NCBI GenBank assembly: GCA_902785785.1
Contig: CADAAA010000006.1
Coordinates: 38,867 to 102,866 of the forward strand
DNA length: 64,000 nt
Direction: 5' to 3'
DNA from: an uncultured Bacteroidia bacterium
GTDB taxonomy: Bacteria > Bacteroidota > Bacteroidia > Bacteroidales > UBA932
The notes beneath the pieces are model-generated. The model saw nothing but the letters and a program-made list of their open reading frames with translations. It was not told the DNA's origin and did not search any database. Below are positions 16,031 through 53,793 of the stretch, in pieces. The translations under genes and the position numbers were made by a program. Position 1 is the stretch's first letter, and the number at the start of each line of letters is the position of its first letter.

Positions 16031-17517
16031 TGCTGCCGCTTTCAATCTTTTCCGTAAACCTTCTGTCTGACAATCTGCTTCTGCTGGCATCGGTACTGGT
16101 GTTCTTCGCCATACTGATCACCAAGATCGGAGCACGCTTCGGGGCCCCTTCCCTGTTGCTGTTCCTTCTGCTGGGTATGATTGCCGGAGCCGACGGGGTG
16201 GGACTGAAGTTCGAGGATTACCACATAGCTGAGTCCATCGGCCATTTCGCCATGACCATCATCCTGTTCACTGGCGGTCTGGAGACATCGATGGTCGAGA
16301 CCAAGCCGGTGATGAAACAAGGCGCACTGCTTTCGACGCTGGGCGTCTTCATGACCTCGATACTGACAGCACTTTTCATCTATTTCGTCGCCGGGAAGTG
16401 GATCGGCCCGCTCGGAGCTTCGTTCCTGGGCTGCTTCCTGCTTTCCGCCGTCATGTCCTCGACTGACTCGGCATCGGTGTTCTCGGTGCTGCGCGGCAAG
16501 AGGATGCACCTCCGTGAGAACCTCAGCCCGATGCTGGAGTTGGAGTCGGGAAGCAACGACCCCATGGCATACGTGCTTACGATTATCCTCGTGCAGGTGC
16601 TGACTTCTTCCAAGCACACCGACTCCATGGCCATGCTCGGCACGGGAGCATGGGTGTTGCTCGTGCAGATCGTGGTAGGTTTCCTGATCGGACTGGGAGT
16701 CGGATTCGGGGCGAAGTGGATCCTGGAGCGCGTCAAGCTTCCCAGCAACGCACTATACTCCGTGATGATCCTGAGCATCGGTTTCTTCGCCAACGGTATC
16801 GCCTCACTCCTGTTCGGTAACGGCCTGCTTGCATTGTACATCGCCGCTATAGTCATAGGCAACAGGGCCGACATCCCCATGAAAAGGGACGTCCTGAAGT
16901 TCTTCGACGGCATGACCTGGCTGATGCAACTGCTCATGTTTTTGATGCTGGGGCTTCTGGCCAGACCGTCGCAGTTCTCCTCCATTGCGTGGCCTGCGCT
17001 GATGATAGGCATGTTCATGATGTTCGTAGCCAGACCGCTGAGCGTATTCCTGTGCCTAGCACCCTTCAAGGGCCTGTCATTCAAGGCCAAGGCCTTCGCC
17101 TCATGGGTAGGCCTCAAGGGCGCGGGTCCTATCTTGTTCGCATTGTGCCCGGTCGTAGCCGGACTCGACGGGGCGACGGAGATATTCAACATCGTGTTCT
17201 TCATCTCGCTGCTGTCGCTGATACTCCAGGGAATGACCCTCTCGTCATCCTCAAGATGGCTCGGGCTCAGCTATGAAGCGGATCCGGAAGTAGAAACGTT
17301 CGGCATGGAGATCCCGGAAGAGATGGGCATGCTCCGCGACCATACCGTGACGGAAGATGACCTCCAGAACGGCGAGACGCTCCGCGACCTGCATCTGCCG
17401 CACGGCATCCGGGTGATGATGGTCAAACGTGACGGGAAATTCCTCGTCCCCCATGGCAGCATGCAACTGCAGGAGGGCGACCATCTCGTTATCATAATGG
17501 GAGATACCGACGACTAG
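16030..17517 (+). CDS. Potassium/proton antiporter (NhaP2/CvrA family) with TrkA-C domain
   Basis: SSTDSASVF, LELESGSNDPMA, WVGLKGAGPI motifs; C-terminal RCK_C-like domain. Confidence 0.9.
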   Translation: MLPLSIFSVNLLSDNLLLLASVLVFFAILITKIGARFGAPSLLLFLLLGMIAGADGVGLKFEDYHIAESIGHFAMTIILFTGGLETSMVETKPVMKQGALLSTLGVFMTSILTALFIYFVAGKWIGPLGASFLGCFLLSAVMSSTDSASVFSVLRGKRMHLRENLSPMLELESGSNDPMAYVLTIILVQVLTSSKHTDSMAMLGTGAWVLLVQIVVGFLIGLGVGFGAKWILERVKLPSNALYSVMILSIGFFANGIASLLFGNGLLALYIAAIVIGNRADIPMKRDVLKFFDGMTWLMQLLMFLMLGLLARPSQFSSIAWPALMIGMFMMFVARPLSVFLCLAPFKGLSFKAKAFASWVGLKGAGPILFALCPVVAGLDGATEIFNIVFFISLLSLILQGMTLSSSSRWLGLSYEADPEVETFGMEIPEEMGMLRDHTVTEDDLQNGETLRDLHLPHGIRVMMVKRDGKFLVPHGSMQLQEGDHLVIIMGDTDD

Positions 17518-17536
17518 ACTATTCTTTGAGCGGTGC

Positions 17537-17647
17537 CCGTGATTTACAATTTATTAACAATCAGCGTTTTAAGCAATTATTGAGTGTCAATTTTGATGAG
17601 GGAGCATTCTGTTAATATACTGGTTTCAAGTCTTTTACAAATCACGG
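17537..17647. repeat. AT-rich ~110 bp imperfect inverted-repeat element
   Basis: CCGTGATTT (17537) / AAATCACGG (ends 17647); arms stay similar inward for ~36 bp. Confidence 0.45.
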
Positions 17648-18462
17648 TGGTGTTAATGGCCGCCGGGTGCAAGGGCGGGCCGGCGCCGGACTTCTCCGGC
17701 CAATGGGCGGAGAAGAGCGCCGAGCGCGTGGTGGCCGTGTTCACGCCGGCCGCTTCCGGCGGCTACGGCGTGCAGATCGGCTGGCGCGAGACCGGCCTCG
17801 CCCAGTACGAGGCCTGGGACATGAGCGCCGTCGCGGGCAAGCGCGGAACGCTTGCCTACAGCGACGGGCGCTTCGTGCGCCTCAGTTTCGAGCGCGACGG
17901 TGACACTGAATATGTCGAAGATACCGTCTATACCGACGGTGAGGGATCATTTCTCATCAACCGCCACGGAGAGCTTGTCTGGACAGACGCCACGGACGGC
18001 TCCAAGACCGTTTTCATCCGCACCGACCTCAACGGCGATAATGCCTCGATCATCGCCCCTGAGCTTACCGGACGCGTCTTGGAGCTATGCCGCTATATCC
18101 CTGACCATGAGCTGCTTCCGGAAGCCTCCTCGTACATGACCGCCGATTTCTTCAAGGCCCTTTCCGACGCTTTTGAAAAAACTGCACCGGATGACGGGAC
18201 GATCGATGATACCGAGTGGCTATACACATTCGTGACCGGAAACGGCGGAGCTCTCCCCTCCTATTCCGTCGAGTCCGTCCACCGGGCAGACCGGACGCAC
18301 GCCACTGCCGTGGTCGGCGTCCGCGACCTTTGGGAGCCCGGCGGAGAGCCCTCCGGCGAACTCCGCCTCCACCAGATGGACCTCGTCCGCGAGAACGGCC
18401 ACTGGCTCATCTCCGACTTCGACGGCCGCAAGCAAGCCTGCCTGGATTACATCTCGCAATAG
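17584..18462 (+). CDS. Hypothetical lipoprotein with C-terminal NTF2/DUF3828-like domain (start uncertain)
   Basis: Lipobox MAAGC; C-terminal ...LVRENGHWLISDF pattern; GC-rich coding bias begins near 17656. Confidence 0.6.
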   Translation: MSILMREHSVNILVSSLLQITVVLMAAGCKGGPAPDFSGQWAEKSAERVVAVFTPAASGGYGVQIGWRETGLAQYEAWDMSAVAGKRGTLAYSDGRFVRLSFERDGDTEYVEDTVYTDGEGSFLINRHGELVWTDATDGSKTVFIRTDLNGDNASIIAPELTGRVLELCRYIPDHELLPEASSYMTADFFKALSDAFEKTAPDDGTIDDTEWLYTFVTGNGGALPSYSVESVHRADRTHATAVVGVRDLWEPGGEPSGELRLHQMDLVRENGHWLISDFDGRKQACLDYISQ

Positions 18463-18466
18463 TGTC

Positions 18467-18550
18467 GTAGACGGTCCAAACCATGGACCGTCAAGAGCAT
18501 TTTAGCCCGTTTTTGCTTCCGACGGTCCAAAGTTTGGACCGTCGGAAGCA
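18467..18550 (-). repeat. REP-like doublet family A, orphan copy 1 (reverse orientation)
   Basis: GACGGTCCA-aacca-TGGACCGTC (18470-18492) and TGCTTCCGACGGTCCA-aagtt-TGGACCGTCGGAAGCA (18514-18550); centres 51 bp apart. Confidence 0.9.
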
Positions 18551-18623
18551 CTTTATGGGGGAAGAATACAAAAAAGGCTACCCGAAGAATATCGAAAGAA
18601 CAGGAAGGAACGTAAAATGGAAT

Positions 18624-19328
18624 CTACGGCAGGAGGACAGGGACGGCGTGGAGAAGGGGGGAAGAGGAAAGGTCCTGAGGATTGGTTCCCGGGACACCCT
18701 GAGGGACATCCGTCCCAAGACGGGTGAAGAGATCCACCCAATACTCCGGGTATTCGCCGTTCTCATTCTTGAAATTCATTGGGTTGCCGTCGAAGAGGCA
18801 GTGCCCGTCCTTGTCCAGGAAGCTCTCCTGAACGAGTTCGGAGCAATACATGGCTCCGTTGTCCGGAAGAAAATACTCATCGTAGGGCTGGCCGCAGAAG
18901 GACTTGGCAGTCTCGATCCATTGGCTTGCGAGACCGGTATCGTTCATTCGCTTGACAGTATAAACGGGGTTTGTGCCATCGTCGTAAACGAAGTCGCTGT
19001 AGAAGGTATCCAGCGGACGCCGGGAGACTCCGCGACGGGTAGTGGCGTCGATGACCCATACGTCGGCGCCGTCTACTTCGACCAGGGCGACGTGGATCAC
19101 GTCGCCCGTCGCGGCGGCGATGGCGCCATCCATCGACGACTCTTTTGCGTCGTGGCCCTCAGCCTGACTGACGAAGATCAGGTCACCGGTCTGCAGCCGC
19201 TCCTGCCGGCCGGCACCGCTGCGGGCTCCGCAGCCCGCCAAGGCCGCCAGCGGGAGCAGAACTGCCAATGCCGTTACCAAGGCAGAAGCCGGACCGGCCG
19301 TGGCTCGATGGACAATCTTTCTCTTCAT
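18624..19328 (-). CDS. YiiX/YebB-like permuted NlpC/P60 cysteine hydrolase lipoprotein
   Basis: GDLIFV, HVALV, IDAT..GV, G.PYD..F, YCSELV motifs; lipobox LAGC. Confidence 0.85.
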   Translation of the reverse strand: MKRKIVHRATAGPASALVTALAVLLPLAALAGCGARSGAGRQERLQTGDLIFVSQAEGHDAKESSMDGAIAAATGDVIHVALVEVDGADVWVIDATTRRGVSRRPLDTFYSDFVYDDGTNPVYTVKRMNDTGLASQWIETAKSFCGQPYDEYFLPDNGAMYCSELVQESFLDKDGHCLFDGNPMNFKNENGEYPEYWVDLFTRLGTDVPQGVPGTNPQDLSSSPLLHAVPVLLP

Positions 19329-19412
19329 TGTTTCAAAGATACTATCTTCTTGGCAAGTTTTGTGTATTGAAGGAAGAGTTTTATATTTGCGACCACTTAA
19401 AAACGGACTTTA

Positions 19413-22295
19413 ATGAAAAGAATTCTTGCCATCATTGCTGGGGCATTGTTTGCCCTCGTGCTCAACGCACAGAACAATCCTCTGGAAGTCAAACAGTTCG
19501 AACTCTCGAACGGCATGCAGGTCTGGCTCAACCAGGACAAATCCCAACCGATAGTCTACGGAGCGGTCGTAGTCCGCGCAGGCGCAAAGGACTGTCCGGA
19601 CACGGGCCTCGCCCATTATCTCGAGCATCTGCTCTTCAAGGGCACGGAAGAGCTCGGCACCGTGGATTACGAGGCCGAGAAGGTCTGGCTGGACTCCATC
19701 GCACTCTGCTATGACCGTCTTTCCACCCTCACCAACGACGACGACCGCAAGGCCATCCAGAAAGAGATCAACCGCCTGAGCAAGAAAGCCGCCGACTTCG
19801 CCATCCCCAACGAGTTCACGCGCCTGATCGCCCGCTTCGGCGGCACCGGCCTCAACGCAGGTACATCTTACGATTATACTTACTACTACAATACTTTCTC
19901 CCCCCAGTACATTGAGCAGTGGGCCGAACTGAACAGCCACCGCATGATCAATCCGGTATTCCGCCTGTTCCAAGGCGAGCTGGAAACCGTTTACGAGGAG
20001 AAGAACCGCGGAGCCGACAACACGATACAGGCCCCGCTCTTCGAGATGATCAAGGAGTTCAGCGGCAGCAATCCCTATTCCTACCAGGTCATCGGCAGCA
20101 CGGGGAACCTCAAGAATCCCCGTCTGGGAGAGATGATGGACTTCTTCAACAAATACTATGTCGGCTGCAACATGGGCCTGATACTGTCTGGAGACATTGA
20201 CTTCGACGGGCTGCAGCCGCTGCTGGAGCGCACCTTCGGGCGCATCCGCCGCGGCGACAAGCCGGAGAAGGCTCCGGTCGAAGTCGAGCCTTTCACCGGT
20301 ATCCGCGAAGTGAAGATCAAGGCTGAGATCCCGCTCATCAAGATAGCGGTCTACGCCTTCAACGGCCCTACCGACAGCGAGAAAGACGCTCCTGCGCTCG
20401 ACCTTGCCACAGGTCTGTTGACCAACAGCTTCTCTTCCGGCCTGATGGACTCCCTGGTCACTGGCCACAAGATGCTCCTGGCAGGAGCCATGCGTGTCCC
20501 TATGTTCAACGAGATGGGCATAACAGGATTCGCCGTAGTGCCGAACCTGCCTTTCGGTTCCCTGCCTAAGGCGGAGAAGCTCTGCTGGGAGCAGGTCCGG
20601 AAGATCCAGAACGGTCAGTTCTCCGACAGCGAGGTGGAAGCCTTGAAACTTGAGACAGCAAGGAATGCCCAGCAGGCTCTCGAGACGATTGCCGGCCGCT
20701 CCGACCAGATGGTCTCGGTGATGACCCAGGGGCGCAGCTGGGACGAGTACCTCGCCCAGGTCGACGCCATCCGTTCCATCACCAGGGACGATATCATCCG
20801 CGTAGCAAATAAGTATTTCACGGACAAATACATACGTTTCGAGAAGGTGATGGGCTCCTACCCCAAGGACAATGTTGCCAAACCCGACATCGATCCCGTG
20901 GTGCCGCAGCACGCCGGCGAGAGCTCCGAGTACGCGAAGCGTCTCGAAGCGATGCCGGTGCGCGATGTCGCACCGCGCCTCGTCGACATGCAGCGTGACG
21001 TCCAGCGTCTCAACGTGACTCCCCACGTGAAGATGTATTACAAGGAGAATCCGGTCAATGACCTGTTCAGGCTCACGCTGCGCGTTACCCGCGGCAGCCA
21101 GGACGATCCTGTCGTTCCCCATGTCGCATCCTTCATGAACACTCTTGGCACTGATTCCCTGTCCGTCCAGCAGCTCAGCAAGGCCTGGCAGGCCCTGGGA
21201 ACCACCCTCACTATCGACTCAGGAAACCACAGCTTCGACATCACCATCAGCGGATACGAAGACAGGCTGGAAGAGTCGCTTAAGCTCCTGCGCCATTTCA
21301 TCGACCACGCTGTTCCGGACAAGGATAGTTTCAAGGAACTGCTTCAAGGCATAGATCTGGAGAAGCAGACCTTCTTCTCCGGCGGCACATCCAATATCAT
21401 GTCCGCCATGCAGTACAGAGTCATGTATGGAGCCAATTCAATGTACCTGAACAAGCTTGACAAGAAGGAGCTCAAGGCTGTAGGCATGAAGGGCCTGATG
21501 CAGAAGTTCTCAGACCTGATGGACCACGAGTATTCGGTGCTGTACTCGGGAAGGAAGCCGGCCGGCGAGGTCGCCGCCGCGCTTGCGCGCAGGCTCGACC
21601 TCGGCCGGGCCGTCAAGTCCGAGGACTGGGTCCGCGTCGATTATTCCGGATATGACACTCCTACAGTGTTCTTCTATGACCTGCCCGGATCCCGCCAGAT
21701 GCAGATGGTCACGTACCAGGCTTTCGACCGTCCGCAGAACGGACAGGAAAAGGCCGCCCTGGAAGTACTCGGGGAGTACTTCGGCGGCGGCATGTTCTCC
21801 CTGATGTTCCAGGAGGTGCGCGAATTCCGCGCCATGGCATACAGTGCCCACGGTTACACCAGCTACCCTGATCCGGCCTACCCCAACGACAAGGCTATAT
21901 TCGTCACCAACCTCGGTACCCAGGCAGACAAGTCCCTCTCCGCTATCCAGCTTGTCGACTCGCTCATCCGCACGCTGCCCATCAAGGAGAATGCCCTGGA
22001 GTCTGCCCGCTACGCCATTGTGGCCGATGCCAACAACGATTATCCCACTTTCCGCAGCCTGCCGTCCATCGTACAGGGTTACGACAGGCTCGGTTATACC
22101 GCCGATCCCGACAAGGATGTCCTGGACAACATTTCTTCCATAGACTCGGCGGCACTGAGGGTATATTACGAGAAGTCTGTCGCTCCAACCCCCATTGCCT
22201 GGATCATCGTCGGTGACCGCAAGACCCTCCCCATGGACGAGATCACCCGATACGGCAGGCTCGTCGAGTTCAAGAAGGAGGATATCTACAAATAG
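19413..22295 (+). CDS. M16 family zinc peptidase (insulinase-like)
   Basis: Signal peptide; HYLEHLLFKG, NAGTSYD, REFRAMAYS. Confidence 0.9.
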   Translation: MKRILAIIAGALFALVLNAQNNPLEVKQFELSNGMQVWLNQDKSQPIVYGAVVVRAGAKDCPDTGLAHYLEHLLFKGTEELGTVDYEAEKVWLDSIALCYDRLSTLTNDDDRKAIQKEINRLSKKAADFAIPNEFTRLIARFGGTGLNAGTSYDYTYYYNTFSPQYIEQWAELNSHRMINPVFRLFQGELETVYEEKNRGADNTIQAPLFEMIKEFSGSNPYSYQVIGSTGNLKNPRLGEMMDFFNKYYVGCNMGLILSGDIDFDGLQPLLERTFGRIRRGDKPEKAPVEVEPFTGIREVKIKAEIPLIKIAVYAFNGPTDSEKDAPALDLATGLLTNSFSSGLMDSLVTGHKMLLAGAMRVPMFNEMGITGFAVVPNLPFGSLPKAEKLCWEQVRKIQNGQFSDSEVEALKLETARNAQQALETIAGRSDQMVSVMTQGRSWDEYLAQVDAIRSITRDDIIRVANKYFTDKYIRFEKVMGSYPKDNVAKPDIDPVVPQHAGESSEYAKRLEAMPVRDVAPRLVDMQRDVQRLNVTPHVKMYYKENPVNDLFRLTLRVTRGSQDDPVVPHVASFMNTLGTDSLSVQQLSKAWQALGTTLTIDSGNHSFDITISGYEDRLEESLKLLRHFIDHAVPDKDSFKELLQGIDLEKQTFFSGGTSNIMSAMQYRVMYGANSMYLNKLDKKELKAVGMKGLMQKFSDLMDHEYSVLYSGRKPAGEVAAALARRLDLGRAVKSEDWVRVDYSGYDTPTVFFYDLPGSRQMQMVTYQAFDRPQNGQEKAALEVLGEYFGGGMFSLMFQEVREFRAMAYSAHGYTSYPDPAYPNDKAIFVTNLGTQADKSLSAIQLVDSLIRTLPIKENALESARYAIVADANNDYPTFRSLPSIVQGYDRLGYTADPDKDVLDNISSIDSAALRVYYEKSVAPTPIAWIIVGDRKTLPMDEITRYGRLVEFKKEDIYK

Positions 22296-22352
22296 GCGTC
22301 AGGACCAGCGCTTTTTATATTCCTTTTTTTTGCATATCTTTGCAGTCCCAAA

Positions 22353-22441
22353 GGAAGGATGGCCGAGTGGCTGAAGGCGCTGGTCTCGAAAACCGGTATA
22401 CCCTTCACGGGGTATCGGGGGTTCGAATCCCCCTTCTTCCG
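22353..22441 (+). tRNA. tRNA-Ser(CGA)
   Basis: Acceptor GGAAGGA/TTCTTCC, D-arm GGCCGAGTGG, anticodon loop CTCGAAA, long variable arm, GGTTCGAATCC; TATCTTTG promoter at 22335; CCA not encoded. Confidence 0.95.
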
Positions 22442-22449
22442 CAAATGGG

Positions 22450-22483
22450 AAAGGCACCGCAGTGAAAACTGTGGTGCCTTTTT
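22450..22483 (+). terminator. Intrinsic terminator after tRNA-Ser
   Basis: AAAGGCACCGCAG-tgaaaa-CTGTGGTGCCTTTTT. Confidence 0.85.
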
Positions 22484-22585
22484 GTCCTCACGGAGATGAC
22501 AGGCGGTGGCGTCGACAGAGCATTTTCCGCGGAGTCGATGCCACCGCCTGACATCGTAGTGAGCGTTTCCCGAATGATGCGGGGG

Positions 22586-23818
22586 CTACGGTTCTTCCAT
22601 GAAGCGTTCGGCGCGGACGAAGCGGAGGGCCTCCTCAATCTGCCGATAGCCGCGGGTGCCGGGACGGGCGAGCTTCAGATAACGTTCGTAATACTCGACA
22701 GCACGCCTGTAGTCCTTCTTCTGCTCGTAGCAGTAGCCGATGGTGGAAATCGCTGAAATGTATTTCTGATTGTACTCGAAAGCCTTCTGGTACAGATCGA
22801 TCGCCTTGTCCCAGTCCTGTCTGGTATATTCCGCCAGAGCATAGTTCTGGTAGATGCTTGACATCAGAGTCGAGTCCGGTTCCATCATCCTGAGTGCTTT
22901 TTCGAACCATGGCTTCACTCCAGCCTGATACCCTACGAAACTGCGGGTCCTGTTCACAGCTATCTCCAGTGCCAGCGAGGCCCTCGTGGAGTCCAGTTGC
23001 CATGCGCGCAGGAAATGCCCGTCGGCATCCTTGTACATCATGAGGTTGGAATAATCCTTGGCCAGATAGTAATGCGGGGCAAACGTGTCGTCTCCGAGGT
23101 CCACAGCCAGTTCGAATGCGTCAGCGGACAACATCCAGTTTTCTTTCAGATAGTACGCCAGCCCCTTTATACGCAGGATATCGATATTGAGCGAGTCCAG
23201 CGCCAGATAGTTCTCCGCCAGGGAAAGCGCCCCATCGTAGTCCTTGCGGTCCAAAAGTATGTTCGACATCTTGCTGACTACAGAGGCGTTGCGAGGCCGC
23301 CGTCGGAGCGCCGTAGCGTAATAGCGCATGGCCGAATCGGGCTGCTCCATCTTGTTGAAGGCGTCTCCGACCAGCGTAAGGACCGGCAAAAGGGTGTCGC
23401 GCCGCAGGACTTCACGTCCTTGCGCGACGACATCCGGCAAAGCTCCTGCCCTGTTCAGCAACGACATGAAACGTACTTGATTGCCGAGATCCTCGGGACG
23501 CAGCTGGGTGAGCTGCATGTACAGCAACATAGCTTCGGCCGAACGGCCCGCCTGATAGTGGCAGTCCGCCAGCTCGCCCAGCACCTCGGTATCCACCGCG
23601 CCCGGCCTGAGCAGGGAGGCAAGTGCCTCGGCTGCCTCGTCGAAGCAGTACATGCGCTTGAGGAGCGCGGCCTTGCGCAGGACGAGGCCGCGCGCGGCGG
23701 CGCTGTCCGAGACGGCCGCCAGGCTGTCGAGCGCCGCGATCTCGCGGCTGCTCTGTGCGCGCACCCCCAGACACGACAAAGCAAGAAGGGTAATGATTAA
23801 ATATCGGAAGGTCTTCAT
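22586..23818 (-). CDS. Secreted tetratricopeptide-repeat protein
   Basis: Signal peptide MKTFRYLIITLLALSCLGVRA; multiple TPR helices; TATATTTG promoter upstream on the minus strand. Confidence 0.85.
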   Translation of the reverse strand: MKTFRYLIITLLALSCLGVRAQSSREIAALDSLAAVSDSAAARGLVLRKAALLKRMYCFDEAAEALASLLRPGAVDTEVLGELADCHYQAGRSAEAMLLYMQLTQLRPEDLGNQVRFMSLLNRAGALPDVVAQGREVLRRDTLLPVLTLVGDAFNKMEQPDSAMRYYATALRRRPRNASVVSKMSNILLDRKDYDGALSLAENYLALDSLNIDILRIKGLAYYLKENWMLSADAFELAVDLGDDTFAPHYYLAKDYSNLMMYKDADGHFLRAWQLDSTRASLALEIAVNRTRSFVGYQAGVKPWFEKALRMMEPDSTLMSSIYQNYALAEYTRQDWDKAIDLYQKAFEYNQKYISAISTIGYCYEQKKDYRRAVEYYERYLKLARPGTRGYRQIEEALRFVRAERFMEEP

Positions 23819-23876
23819 ATACAATATCATTTCCACAAATATATGCATTATTCTCGAAACTCCTAAAAAAAATAGT

Positions 23877-24037
23877 AGTTCGACAAGTCGTCTGGAACAC
23901 AGGTAAGCATCTCAACGCATTCCGGACCTCATCGCTGTTCCTGACCTCGTGGATTTCGTCAGGTTGCGAACAGGAACCTGCCCTACAACGTATCAGAAGG
24001 CCATCCCCTGTTCCAGACGATTTGCCGGCCGCGAACT
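23877..24037. ncRNA. Candidate structured RNA (closing stem, central bubble, apical stem)
   Basis: TCGTCTGGAACA (23888-99)/TGTTCCAGACGA (24009-20); inner CTGTT-CCTGAC/GTCAGG-AACAG; intergenic. Identity not established. Confidence 0.3.
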
Positions 24038-24108
24038 GAGAGAGGAATCTCATCGCTTAATCGGACCGCATTGTGATTATGTGAAGTCCATCCGCTAGAG
24101 CAGGTGAA

Positions 24109-24192
24109 GTAGACGGTCCATAGTTTGGACCGTCTATAGCAAAAACGCCCCAAAATGACGTAGACGGTCCAAGTCTTGGACCGTCTACAGCA
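24109..24192 (+). repeat. REP-like doublet family A, orphan copy 2
   Basis: GTAGACGGTCCA-tagtt-TGGACCGTCTA, linker TAGCAAAAACGCCCCAAAATGAC, GTAGACGGTCCA-agtct-TGGACCGTCTACAGCA; 51 bp spacing. Confidence 0.92.
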
Positions 24193-24287
24193 GCGATAAT
24201 GACTGAATCCCCTTCTCAATATCCGACCGTTTGGATAACTCCGACCAAACCCTTATCTTTAGGTTGACAAAACGTACTTTCCAGACT

Positions 24288-24959
24288 ATGGATAAAGAAC
24301 TGTTCTTACAATCGTTCCTGAAGTTTATCCTGGGCTTCGCCATTGTCGGCCTGCTGCTGTTTTTGCCTGCTGGTTCATTTTCTTATTGGCAGGGGTGGCT
24401 GCTGATGGGGATCCTGTTCGTGCCGATGTTCTGTGCCGGACTGGTGATGATGGCCCGGAATCCTGATCTCCTTCGCAAGCGGCTGAACGCAAGGGAAGAG
24501 GAAAAGGAACAGAAAACCGTTGTGAAACTTAGCGGCCTGCTGTTCATAGCCGCATTTGTCATAGCCGGGCTCAACTGGCGCTTCGGATGGTGTGTCCTTC
24601 CAAACTGGGCAGTGTGGGTTTCGGCCGGGCTTTTCCTGATCTGCTACCTCCTGTATGCCGAGGTCCTTAGGGAGAACACCTTTCTGTCCAGGACCATTGA
24701 AGTGCAGGAGAATCAAAAGGTTATAGATACCGGACTGTACGGTATAGTACGGCATCCGATGTATATGGCCACAACCGTCCTGTTCCTTGCGATGCCGCTG
24801 GTACTTGCATCGCCCATCTCCTTCGCCGTCATGCTTCTGTATATACCTCTGATCGCTAAACGCATCAAGAATGAGGAGGCTGTCCTTGAAGAAGGCCTGG
24901 AAGGCTACAAGGAGTATAAGCTGCGGGTAAAGTATAAGGTGTTACCGTTTATCTGGTAA
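24288..24959 (+). CDS. Isoprenylcysteine carboxyl methyltransferase family membrane protein
   Basis: RENTFLSRTIEVQ..QKVIDTGLYGIVRHPMY, RI..EE..L..GL.GY..Y...V. Confidence 0.88.
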   Translation: MDKELFLQSFLKFILGFAIVGLLLFLPAGSFSYWQGWLLMGILFVPMFCAGLVMMARNPDLLRKRLNAREEEKEQKTVVKLSGLLFIAAFVIAGLNWRFGWCVLPNWAVWVSAGLFLICYLLYAEVLRENTFLSRTIEVQENQKVIDTGLYGIVRHPMYMATTVLFLAMPLVLASPISFAVMLLYIPLIAKRIKNEEAVLEEGLEGYKEYKLRVKYKVLPFIW

Positions 24960-25053
24960 ATCCCATAACGGGGTTTTTGTAAAAAAACTTCCGGCTCCAT
25001 GCAAGAATCTCGGAAAACCAGCGTTTATTGTGCAGTCATTTAAAAAGATTATT

Positions 25054-25758
25054 ATGATGAAAAGCTTTTTCAGATGGTTCGCCATCGCAGCGGCTGTCCT
25101 CAGCATTGCCGCCTGCAAGTTGGACGACGACAGTTTCGATCCCAGCATAATGTATCCGTCAGCCGTCGTGACCGTAAAGCCCGACGCGGACAATTCGTCT
25201 TTCTACATGCAGCTGGACGAAGAGACTGTGCTGCACGCAGTTAACATGAAGAAATCCCCCTTCGGGACCAAGGAAGTCAGGGCACTGGTAAACTACCGCA
25301 AGCCTACCGCGGAGGAGATGCAGAAAGGCGGTCTCTATGACGATGCGGGTAACGTCTATATCAACTGGATTGACTCCATCCTCACCAAGAAGCCGGTACC
25401 GGACCTCGGTGAAGATGCCAATGCCGTCAAGTACGGAAATGACCCTATCGAAATCGTAGGGGACTGGACCACGGTTGTCGAAGACGGTTACATCACCCTC
25501 CGTTTCCGCACTATTTGGACCGATGGAGTCATGCACAGGATCAACCTCGTAGCCAGTTCAGACCCGGCTGACCCTTATAAGGTCACGCTCTACCACGACG
25601 CTGCAGGCGACCATTCCGGTCGCGAGGGAGACGCGCTCGTAGCTTTCAGCCTCGCCGACCTGCCTGACACGCAAGGAGCTACCGTCGACCTGACGCTGGA
25701 GTGGAAATCCTTCTCCGGGGTCAAGACCGCCAAGTTCAAATACCGCACACGCGATTAA
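25054..25758 (+). CDS. NigD-like lipoprotein
   Basis: Lipobox IAAC; A.VTVK, YGNDPIEI, H.INLV, L.HDA.GD, VAFSL..LP. Confidence 0.8.
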   Translation: MMKSFFRWFAIAAAVLSIAACKLDDDSFDPSIMYPSAVVTVKPDADNSSFYMQLDEETVLHAVNMKKSPFGTKEVRALVNYRKPTAEEMQKGGLYDDAGNVYINWIDSILTKKPVPDLGEDANAVKYGNDPIEIVGDWTTVVEDGYITLRFRTIWTDGVMHRINLVASSDPADPYKVTLYHDAAGDHSGREGDALVAFSLADLPDTQGATVDLTLEWKSFSGVKTAKFKYRTRD

Positions 25759-29514: not shown

Positions 29515-29643
29515 AAGCACAAAACCTCTCGTTTTGTGCTTTTTTTACGCTAAACAGGTCGGAATAAGCACATTTCCTCAGTATTTGTTCTTATTTCAAT
29601 GGACTTTGGCTCATTTAAGCACAAAAGAGGCAGAGCTGTGCTT
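29515..29643. repeat. Dyad array family B, upstream (3 units, 51 bp period)
   Basis: AAGCACA-N13-TGT(G/T)CTT starting at 29515, 29566 and 29617. Confidence 0.85.
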
Positions 29644-29747: not shown

Positions 29748-30701
29748 ATGAAAAACTTTAGTTTTGAGCAAAAGGAAAAGGAACGGATCTCCTTTCATGA
29801 AGCAGAGACGGTTTGTGAATACCGTTTCTCGCAATCAGGCAAATGCTGGCATCTGTATACGCCTGAAGATTTTGAGATTATCTTTTCTGATGATGACGAC
29901 TTCCGGGCTGGCATGACCATTCTCGCACTTTGCGCACTGTCGTTTCCCGGAATCAGGATATTCACTTTCGAATGGATGAACAACCATCTCCATGTTACGC
30001 TTGCTGGTGATAGGGCGGAGATTGATTCCTTTTTCAAAATTCTGAAAGACATACTGGGAAGGTATCTTAAGAACAAGGGAAGGACGGTTTCTCTCAATTC
30101 CTGGAGCTATGGGTTACGCGCTGTCAATGACCTGAGGGATATGAGAAGCGTAATCGCCTACAACAACCGGAACGGCTTCCTCATCAACGAATCAGAAACG
30201 CCCTTTACCTATCCCTGGGGTGCTAACCGATTCTTTTTCAACAGATACGCTTTCGCGGAACATGAGCGCAGCACGGAAAGATTGAGAATCCGTGATGTCT
30301 GGAAAGAGTTCCATACGCGTGCCTTCGACAAGTTCTCCGGTCTTGTGATGCTGGACGGATATGTTTCTCCTCTGGAGTGTTGTCATGTCAGTGAAGCGGA
30401 AGGCCTGTTCCGCAACGCACATCAGTATTTCCATTCCGTCTCCAGGGATATGGATGCACAAAGACGGATATCCAAAGAGATCGGGGACAGGATCACTTAT
30501 ACGGATAATGAGATGTACAGCGCCGTAGCAGAACTATGTCGAACGACTTATAGTGTCACCGCACCGGCACTCCTGCCCAAAGAGGCTAAGGTCGAGGTCG
30601 CCAGAAAGATGCACTTCGACTATAATGCAAGTGAAAAGCAAATCGCACGGATCCTCAGGGTTGACCCCGGACTCGTTCCCTCGCTGCTGGCGCGGAAATA
30701 A
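29748..30701 (+). mobile_element. HUH/Y1 tyrosine transposase-like gene (RAYT/TnpA-REP-like) with C-terminal helical/HTH extension; cognate of family B arrays
   Basis: IFSDDDDF, MNNHLH (HUH), AYNNRN (catalytic Tyr), TYPWG; paralog of 52730-53590; visibly lower GC than neighbours. Confidence 0.85.
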
Positions 30702-30710
30702 GCCTCGGCC

Positions 30711-30892
30711 AAGCACAAAAAACGGGCTTTTGTGCTCCCACGGCTGTTTATATACTCGGAAAAAGCACATAATGTGCGGTTTCGTGCTTATTTCTCTTAA
30801 TCTGAGTCAAAATAAGAACAAAATAGGGCAATCTGTTCCTATTTTGAGGAGAAACTGCCAAAAAAAAGAACAAATCAGGCAGTTCTGTGCTT
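30711..30892. repeat. Dyad array family B, downstream (4 units, 51-52 bp period)
   Basis: AAG(C/A)ACA-N13-(T/C)GT(G/T)C(T/C)(T/C) starting at 30711, 30763, 30814 and 30866. Confidence 0.85.
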
Positions 30893-52589: not shown

Positions 52590-52677
52590 TGCTGTAGACG
52601 GTCCAAAGATTGGACCGTCTACAGCAAAAACGCCCCAGAATGACGTAGACGGTCCAGCCCTTGGACCGTCTACGTCA
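52590..52677 (+). repeat. REP-like doublet family A, copy 3 (3-prime flank of the HUH gene)
   Basis: TGCTGTAGACGGTCCA-aagat-TGGACCGTCTACAGCA and TGACGTAGACGGTCCA-gccct-TGGACCGTCTACGTCA; two perfect 16 bp stems with centres 51 bp apart. Confidence 0.95.
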
Positions 52678-52729: not shown

Positions 52730-53590
52730 TTACCAACCGTCAAGCATCCGGGCGGCCTCTTCATAAGGGATACCGGTCACACGGCAGATTTGGTTGAGGT
52801 CCGCACTGAAACGGCGTCCGAGCTGCCGAAGCAACTCTGTTTTCTGCTCCACGCCCAAGTCTGAGATCCTGTTCGACCTAAATAAAGAGTGACACAGATC
52901 CTCGCTTGCCGAAAGGATATTCTGATCCCTGAAAGACGGAGCCGCTCCTCCTTCAAGCCTTTGACGGGCTTTGGAAGATGTCCTGAGGAAGTATCCCAAC
53001 CGCTTCGGGGTCCGGAACAGGGCTTCTACGCCCTTCACCTGTACGTAGGATTCCGGCAGGATATACCCTCCCGATCCTATCTTATAGTCTCCAGGAAGCA
53101 TGACATTGCTTTTCAGCATCCGCATCTGAGCCCTTCCAGAAAACTCCCCCAAACACCTCCCCGGGAAAGGGTTGTCATTAAAAAACACGTTCCCTGTCCC
53201 CCAAGGATAGCCGGAAGGCTCGAAACAGATGTTCGCTGCCACGCTGTTCATCAATACGTAGGCAATGGCCCTCTCAAGGGACTCGTCGCTGTCATTTACC
53301 TCCCTGATATCCACTCCGTTACGGCGCAGGAGCTCGTTTACTCCATATTTCCTGTAGAAATAAGAGGCATACAGGCGCTTGAACGTGTTAATGAACAGTT
53401 CCGCATCCTCACGGCTGCATGCAAGCACGAAATGGACATGGTTGGACATAAGGATGAATGCCAGAACCATTACTCCGGACAAAAAGGCTGCGACAGCCAC
53501 ATAGTTCATCGCCACGCGGAAGTCTTCCCCGTCCCGGAACCACAGGCGGTCTTCCAGATGCTCCGTCGTAATCAAGTAATAGTGTTTCAT
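52730..53590 (-). mobile_element. HUH/Y1 tyrosine transposase-like gene (RAYT/TnpA-REP-like) with C-terminal HTH-like extension; cognate of family A doublets
   Basis: WFRDGEDF, MSNHVH (HUH), AYVLMN (catalytic Tyr), GYPWG; no TnpB partner; no terminal IRs/TSD recognised. Confidence 0.88.
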
Positions 53591-53700
53591 AGTCAAGTCT
53601 GTTTAACGCCTGCAAGATAGATTTTGTGTCGGATACTCCAAGGAACCATAAAGATTCATATCGGGGTATTTCCACGTTTTTTATCTTTTTGTATTCTCGA

Positions 53701-53793
53701 AATGACATAGACGGTCCAGCAATTGGACCGTCTACAGCAAAAACGCCCCGAAATGACGTAGACGGTCCAGTCTGTGGACCGTCTACGTCATTT
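53701..53793 (+). repeat. REP-like doublet family A, copy 4 (5-prime flank of the HUH gene)
   Basis: TAGACGGTCCA-gcaat-TGGACCGTCTA and AAATGACGTAGACGGTCCA-gtctg-TGGACCGTCTACGTCATTT; 51 bp spacing. Confidence 0.95.

Follow-up and report, generated by a model that had tools for sequence, protein, structure and literature searches.

A hairpin doublet with a TCC/GGA stem between convergent genes of a rumen Bacteroidales genome, a probable old copy of a REP-type repeat family

The doublet and the genes around it

The window, the whole stretch of 64,000 nt that was analysed, carries between two convergent genes a doublet of palindromic hairpins (Table 1). The TAG stop codon of the upstream gene (18460-18462) directly abuts the first hairpin. 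The 70 nt on the right of the doublet were not repeated elsewhere in the genome, which ruled out that they are part of a larger repeat, and together with the doublet they form a 161-nt intergenic stretch separating the two genes. The doublet lies 34.2 kb from a gene of the HUH/Y1 type (52730-53596). The initial annotation had described the copy as an orphan after a stop codon, between convergent genes and 34 kb from its cognate gene, in agreement with these positions. A consensus scan for terminators and promoters at the orphan-doublet locus found none, and no run of T abutted either stem.

Table 1. Features of the orphan-doublet locus and of the related sites in the window
Feature	Position	Strand	Description
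Upstream convergent gene	17596..18462	+	hypothetical protein, 288 aa, no Pfam family
Hairpin 1	18463..18499	.	arms TGTCGTAGACGGTCCA (18463-18478) and TGGACCGTCAAGAGCA (18484-18499), loop AACCA
Spacer	18500..18513	.	14 nt, TTTTAGCCCGTTTT, A/T-edged
Hairpin 2	18514..18550	.	arms TGCTTCCGACGGTCCA (18514-18529) and TGGACCGTCGGAAGCA (18535-18550), loop AAGTT
Unique stretch	18554..18623	.	70 nt between doublet and C92 stop codon
Downstream convergent gene	18624..19328	-	Peptidase_C92 (YaeF/YiiX), 234 aa, stop at 18624
Second orphan doublet	24105..24192	.	same family, divergent intergenic region
Doublet 3' of HUH/Y1 gene	52590..52677	.	consensus type, both stems perfect
Putative RAYT-like HUH/Y1 gene	52730..53596	-	288 aa, flanked by the doublets at 52590-52677 and 53703-53790
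Doublet 5' of HUH/Y1 gene	53703..53790	.	spacer orientation same as at 52590

Read directly from the sequence, positions 18463-18550 consist of two 37-nt palindromic hairpins that repeat with a period of 51 nt and are separated by a spacer of 14 nt. Their 9-bp cores start at 18470 and 18521, leaving 28 nt from core to core; period and gap were both as given in the initial annotation. In hairpin 1 the core GACGGTCCA/TGGACCGTC is intact. Its outer 7-nt arms, TGTCGTA and AAGAGCA, are mismatched at four of the seven positions, a point absent from the initial annotation, and GTAG is present on the plus strand only (18467-18470).

Hairpin 2 is a perfect palindrome, TGCTTCCGACGGTCCAAA-G-TTTGGACCGTCGGAAGCA. 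It has TCC at 18518-18520 and GGA at 18544-18546, where the family consensus is GTA/TAC. Compared with the copy at 52590-52626 (TGCTGTAGACGG..CCGTCTACAGCA; stem arms TGCTGTAG..CTACAGCA), GTA was replaced by TCC and TAC by GGA, and all three changed pairs were complementary. GTAG is gone from both strands. The reported outer arms, TGCTTCC/GGAAGCA versus TGCTGTA/TACAGCA with the perfect stem kept and GTAG destroyed, were thus confirmed. The spacer TTTTAGCCCGTTTT differs at three positions from the main type TTTTGGGGCGTTTT, and the nearest spacer found was TTTTGAGCCCTTTT, from a metagenomic sub-family (L067).

DNA folding of the orphan-doublet region gave -34.1 kcal/mol with a z-score of -8.1, and none of 200 shuffled sequences folded as well. 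Hairpin 2 formed a 17-bp stem, while hairpin 1 folded in its 9-bp core only because of the four mismatches in its outer arms.

The repeat family and the HUH/Y1 gene

The genome (G000) is a 2.36-Mb assembly of 12 contigs with 55.8% G+C. Regular-expression scanning and exhaustive nhmmer search found exactly 12 doublets (24 hairpins), all of period 51 and all intergenic. No singletons or decayed relics were found in the genome with nhmmer --max: the doublets scored at least 66 bits, and then nothing scored above 13 bits. The orphan doublet is the most divergent copy, with 75.7 bits against 88-99 bits for the others and 64% identity in one comparison. Among the ten copies not flanking the HUH/Y1 gene, six follow a gene end at a distance of no more than 60 nt, four of them between convergent genes. 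Upstream of the second orphan doublet, at a distance of about 1.7 kb, is a tRNA gene (window 22353-22441; Rfam tRNA model, 54.8 bits).

The 14-nt spacer AAAACGCCCCRAAA was found in either orientation, for example at 52590-52677 versus C1:463829, with the order of the hairpin types (GCTG then GACG) unchanged. The outer flanks AAGTG..CACTT are constant among the 12 doublets despite the spacer flips. In this respect, the spacer behaves as a loop would in a larger inverted repeat. The orphan copy had been called reverse-oriented in the initial annotation, which holds for its 14-nt spacer; as a marker of the orientation of the element the term fails, since the spacer is found both ways across copies. 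Spacer orientation had no consistent relation to the direction of the neighbouring genes. In another lineage (L081), the two doublets beside the RAYT gene had opposite spacer orientations.

At E <= 1, the doublets in 17000-25500 had no match in Rfam. With exact cores as the query, the family was confined to rumen Bacteroidales MAGs and rumen-type metagenomes; matches in Bradyrhizobium and other taxa were isolated single palindromes, and the core pattern was found in 0 of 40 relatives. The doublet at C1:190298-190391, which is near a tRNA gene, recurs, defects included (CTATGACG, GAAGG), in the rumen MAGs RGIG8086 and RGIG6041, which represent two other GTDB species (L040:320-420 and L037:3797-3897); the flanks are 92-95% identical. 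In L037, the left flank ceases to be homologous some 12 nt away from the doublet. Another hairpin family of the genome, (A/T/C)G(A/C)ACAAAA-N5-7-TTTTGT(T/G)C, is unrelated and forms doublets and arrays of up to 4-5 units with a period of about 51 nt (window 29517-29539 and 30713-30735; C1:441180-441355, C5:180658-180884 and C1:80387-80511). It flanks several other RAYT-like paralogues, such as that at window 29844-30659.

The protein encoded between the doublets at 52590-52677 and 53703-53790 has an NHVH motif (H53, H55) and a tyrosine, Tyr113, in YVLMN; when 20 homologues were aligned, H53, H55 and Y113 did not vary. The C-terminus is extended by a conserved, helical part of roughly 150 aa. 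The protein matched NCBIfam REP_Tyr_transpos (NF047646) with E = 9e-9 over profile positions 9-145 of 146, at a score under the curated cut-off (35.3 vs 80 bits), as was that for Pfam Y1_Tnp (PF01797; 15.2 vs 23). Among the 20 homologues, 19 matched PF01797 at E <= 1, the best E-value being 1.6e-5. Pfam search at default thresholds gave no match for the HUH protein or for the upstream gene of the orphan doublet, and searches of PDB by sequence, with the single protein and with a profile, gave marginal matches only.

An AlphaFold model of the protein had a pLDDT of 84.8. Foldseek ranked 4er8_A first, E. coli TnpA_REP in complex with a REP hairpin, and then TnpA of ISDra2 and of IS608; each match had a probability of 1.00. 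The structural model therefore indicates that the gene is a divergent RAYT-like gene with an HUH/Y1 fold. By analogy, the protein would bind and cut these hairpins. Homologues numbered 1948 at E <= 1e-5, in Bacteroidales, and every source name seen was 'hypothetical protein'. The arrangement of the gene flanked by doublets was also found in L077 and L081, and in L081, a more distant lineage, the RAYT gene was syntenic. An IS200/IS605 insertion sequence was ruled out as the identity of the element: the transposase gene is single-copy, and its 10 paralogues in the genome are only 24-33% identical and lie beside other repeats.

Stem pairing, strain variation and the history of the locus

Covariation analysis of family copies had been suggested in the initial annotation. 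Pooling the genome, GTDB representatives and metagenomes yielded 41 distinct doublets, which gave 41 distinct hairpin arm pairs. In these hairpins, 90.2% of the cells of the 16-bp stem were paired, compared with 83.2% after shuffling, and the covariation score was 0.204 against 0.084; none of 500 shuffles reached the observed score. Slid controls were 22-45% paired. Variation was confined to outer pairs 3-7, each with 2-4 Watson-Crick pair types. The 9-bp core showed no variation in the 41 hairpins and was nearly invariant in the wider family, and the scans of both collections (one genome per GTDB species; JGI metagenomes) required exact cores. Covariation is thus present, supporting that stem complementarity is actively kept in the family.

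The compensated triplets next to the core were GTA/TAC, TTA/TAA, CTA/TAG, GTT/AAC, ACT/AGT, AGT/ACT and TCC/GGA. When pairing partners were compared, the outer stems had 85 mismatches within hairpins versus 156 between hairpins, and pairing within hairpins was better in 24 doublets and worse in 1. This result indicated that the conserved structure is two separate hairpins and not a long stem of the REPIN style. The view of the doublet as a REPIN-like, non-autonomous unit was therefore upheld in part: 12 of 12 copies are doublets, while pairing between hairpins does not hold and mobility is presumed.

Orthologous loci with flanks 85-100% identical were then compared between G000 and other strains (comparison loci L065, L077, L082, L084 and L092). 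The loop was switched to its exact reverse complement between strains in four cases at three orthologous loci: GAAAA/TTTTC and ATCTG/CAGAT at C1:463829, TTTTG/CAAAA at C5:47955, and GTCTG/CAGAC at C6:92575 (window 53703-53790). Template switching in inverted repeats is known to cause homogenisation of the arms, inversion of the loop or spacer, and multi-base compensatory changes in one step (PMC8794818, PMC8604942). The loop inversions observed here are a footprint of this process.

Segregating sites at 11 loci were counted in each part of the doublets. They made up 5.0% of the flanks (327/6563), 2.0% of the stems and spacer (19/968; odds ratio 0.38 vs flanks, p = 5e-6) and 28% of the loops (31/110; p = 5e-15 vs flanks). 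Polymorphism relative to the flanks was thus about 6 times higher in the loops and 2.5 times lower in the stems and spacer. Loop inversions and low stem polymorphism make both a mutational mechanism and a purifying constraint visible. At the family level, the covariation, the odds ratio and the exact loop inversions bear out the earlier proposal that selection or template-switch repair keeps the hairpin. Palindromic loops were also considered as a signature of template switching and were dropped, because 3 of 57 were seen and about 3.6 were expected; the loop of hairpin 2 therefore does not single out this process.

The C92 protein was found on many contigs. The orphan doublet was identical in seven same-species sequences: G000, four distinct loci (L009-L012), and two metagenome contigs (L089 and L090). 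Hairpins and spacer were unchanged, and the flanks differed by 0-3%. Eleven loci could be compared within the species, nine of them with matches to both flanks, and none showed an insertion polymorphism; for C4:253902 there was no sequence to compare. Same-species metagenome doublets all mapped to loci of G000, of which 11 of 12 were recovered, giving no sign of ongoing transposition. Given the lack of insertion polymorphism and the identity of the seven sequences, mobility is presumed rather than observed.

The upstream protein's homologues gave access to syntenic loci of sister lineages. No doublet is present in L100 (80% identity) or L102 (74%), whose convergent genes overlap by 9 nt and 4 nt, respectively, with C-termini as long as in this genome. 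C92 is missing from L095-L097 and L099, where a stretch of 111-133 nt contains no doublet; in L099, a canonical terminator of a GC hairpin and a T-run stands at the equivalent place. L093/L094 and L101 also have no doublet, and in them the upstream gene directly adjoins its neighbour. A search for empty sites in up to 120 genus-level species reached genomes that were too distant, with the C92 protein at most 55% identical and no shared neighbours.

The initial annotation had proposed a search for empty sites in close relatives. The copy is not fixed in all relatives, as syntenic sister lineages lack it, and the 161-nt stretch is specific to this species-level lineage. Insertion in this lineage would be the most parsimonious reading of sites that are not clean and that include several independent deletions. 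Identity within the species and absence from syntenic sisters suggest that the doublet was acquired once and has been held since.

Other changes were noticed at the same place. In L090, a metagenome contig of the same species, a 777-bp indel (window 18568-19344 vs L090:8653-8687) removes the whole C92 gene and keeps the doublet; it begins about 25 nt right of the doublet. The junction beside the doublet has at least three other deletion states in sister lineages, so the region is structurally unstable. In L102 (957-990), the 3' end of C92 reads GGACGGTCC exactly where the doublet sits here, matching 8 of 9 core bases; this may be fortuitous or may hint at a target preference.

Origin of the TCC/GGA stem and relation to known systems

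We consider it likely that the orphan doublet is an old, fixed copy of a REP-type element served by the RAYT-like HUH/Y1 single-strand DNA transposase, and that its stem was re-paired by template switching and kept by purifying selection. The unit would be a doublet of separately folding 37-nt palindromes, in which the invariant 9-bp core (GACGGTCCA) is the part recognised by the protein. In the 7-bp outer stem, five variable pairs would need only to pair; the 5-nt loop would be free, and the 14-nt spacer would set the 51-nt period. An invariant core with a covarying outer stem would fit recognition of a folded single strand by an HUH/Y1 protein, as in 4er8. The doublet with about 70 nt of unique DNA would have arrived between the convergent genes in the ancestor of the species and remained unchanged since. 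With TCC/GGA, the family has at least seven compensated variants of the outer stem. Template switching during replication, inside the palindrome, would restore complementarity by the same process that inverts loops between strains, and purifying selection would keep the result. Template switching, and not stepwise substitution, would also be the source of the stem of hairpin 2. With GTAG missing from three of its four strand-arms, the orphan copy is probably immobile and no longer a substrate.

The stem may instead have been inherited, with nothing compensated at this locus, from a lost sub-family master that already had TCC/GGA or TCT/AGA. Triplets next to the core do define sub-families elsewhere: ACT/AGT (L035, L049), AGT/ACT (L085, L088), GTT/AAC (L067, L081), CTA/TAG and TTA/TAA, and related sub-families carry TCT and others at the same three positions. 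In L067, L069 and L072, the left arm is TGCTTCT and the spacer is TTTTGAGCCCTTTT, each of them near that of the orphan doublet, and L067, with AACAGC, TTTTGAGCCCTTTT and TGCTTCT, resembles its inner arms and spacer more than the main type of the genome does. The left arm of hairpin 1, TGTCGTAG, is of the type found in the arms beside the RAYT orthologue of L081, and the orphan doublet is the outlier among the genome copies by score. From these resemblances, the comparison with copy 3 of the initial annotation, which has the GTA/TAC arms, is not one of ancestor and descendant. The orphan copy may descend from another sub-family state, and a TCT/AGA-like precursor would need one compensated pair, versus three from GTA/TAC. 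Of the 'triple compensatory change' originally claimed, the three complementary pair differences stand; the polarity from GTA to TCC does not, given the other triplets in the sub-families. However, no second TCC/GGA hairpin was found with exact cores in the genome, the one-genome-per-GTDB-species set or the JGI metagenomes, except in orthologues of the locus. Hairpin 1 is also a chimera of arm types with four mismatches, which indicates that the copy changed after insertion. We regard inheritance of the stem as possible, though doubtful on this evidence.

A host role of the orphan copy at the 3' ends of both genes is possible. The hairpins could act, independently of the transposase, as a terminator, 3' end stabiliser or insulator for the convergent genes. 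Such a role would agree with a copy that directly follows a stop codon, parts genes overlapping in sister lineages and is unchanged in seven strains, with the canonical terminator at the equivalent place in L099, and with the six of ten copies close to gene ends, four between convergent genes. REPs are usually located near gene ends (PMC3733652). The consensus scan, however, gave no terminator-like site and no abutting T-run, another copy lies in a divergent promoter region, and a bare need for pairing leaves the (near-)invariant 9-bp core unexplained. We consider exaptation by the host as the whole explanation unlikely. Less likely again would be that the core-adjacent pairs are a fast-evolving specificity code between RAYT and hairpin, and that the copy escaped its transposase and was kept by the host as a structural spacer or terminator uncoupling formerly overlapping genes.

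The palindromes might also be double-stranded dyad operators, sites for a dimeric protein such as the helical C-terminal part of the HUH protein, with the 51-nt period placing two dimers in phase on the same face of the helix. The invariance of the 9-bp half-sites, the constant gap of 5 nt and the strict period, whose 51 nt make about five turns of the helix, would suit such sites, as would the conserved helical extension of the protein and the similar period of the unrelated hairpin family in the same genome. The outer stem, however, varies freely and yet remains complementary, which a protein reading half-sites would not require. Loop inversions imply fold-back or cruciform intermediates, and the modelled fold of the protein is that of transposases binding single-strand hairpins. 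This reading is quite improbable. A neutral relic, whose stem is perfect by chance in a decaying copy, agrees with the decayed outer stem of hairpin 1 and with the lack of mobility seen within the species, but is hardly credible given three one-arm changes matched by their complements (probability about 1/27 at best), 36 unchanged core bases where outer arms and spacer differ from the consensus at roughly 1/3 of positions, the fold z-score of -8.1, and the family-wide covariation and reduced polymorphism.

REP/RAYT systems have been documented mainly in Proteobacteria. We conclude that the doublet system is a Bacteroidales variant of this kind. It shares with REP/RAYT (E. coli TnpA_REP, 4er8) the dispersed short extragenic palindromes, mostly near gene 3' ends, the single-copy HUH/Y1 gene flanked by the same palindromes, the best structural match of the modelled protein (4er8), and a RAYT gene syntenic in L081 as expected for vertical inheritance. 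It differs in its 288-aa protein, which has a roughly 150-aa extension, scores far under curated cut-offs and has 1948 unnamed homologues. Its hairpins are strand-symmetric and its copy number is low (24 hairpins). The GTAG at the 5' foot of REP hairpins has a counterpart adjoining the hairpin in the consensus of this genome, on both strands and within the extended stem; hairpin 2 of the orphan copy lacks it, and sister sub-families have ACTG, AGTG or GTTG instead.

As in REPINs (Bertels and Rainey 2011, PMC3116915), the doublet is the conserved dispersed unit, non-autonomous beside a single RAYT. Compensatory changes in REPIN hairpins were reported to be common (PMC3116915). Unlike in REPINs, the palindromes fold separately and singletons are absent. 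Excision or insertion polymorphism was not encountered at the 11 loci compared within the species, and syntenic sites of sister lineages lack the doublet. CGTC-tagged REPs have stems of 8-9 bp and loops of 4-5 nt, are mostly dimers and were reported from Bacteroidetes (Di Nocera et al. 2013, PMC3733652). Compared by description only, the family resembles that class in that the 3' arm of its core ends in CGTC (GGACCGTC), which survives in the TCC/GGA copy; the class, however, was reported without a transposase gene (PMC3733652), whereas this family has one. Quasipalindrome template-switch mutation is matched by the loop and spacer inversions between strains and copies, but is a mutational process and not an element family. 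HUH/Y1 subclasses with 'atypical secondary structures' were already listed in Bacteroidetes (PMC6006769).

Distinctive in the present system are the strand-symmetric hairpin, the separately folding doublet, the strict 51-nt period, the long unannotated protein and the directly observed loop inversions. It offers a clean low-copy example of REP/RAYT in an uncultured rumen Bacteroidales genome, whose strains show the evolution of palindromes directly, with frozen cores, re-pairing outer stems and flipping loops. The family is thereby a convenient natural test bed for template switching versus selection in the maintenance of hairpins. The gain for annotation is modest: 288-aa 'hypothetical proteins' become nameable, and assembly breaks are to be expected at the repeats. 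Many of the HUH/Y1 homologues (P0001-P0120) were found on contigs of only 1-3 kb, a length to be expected if the flanking repeats interrupt assembly.
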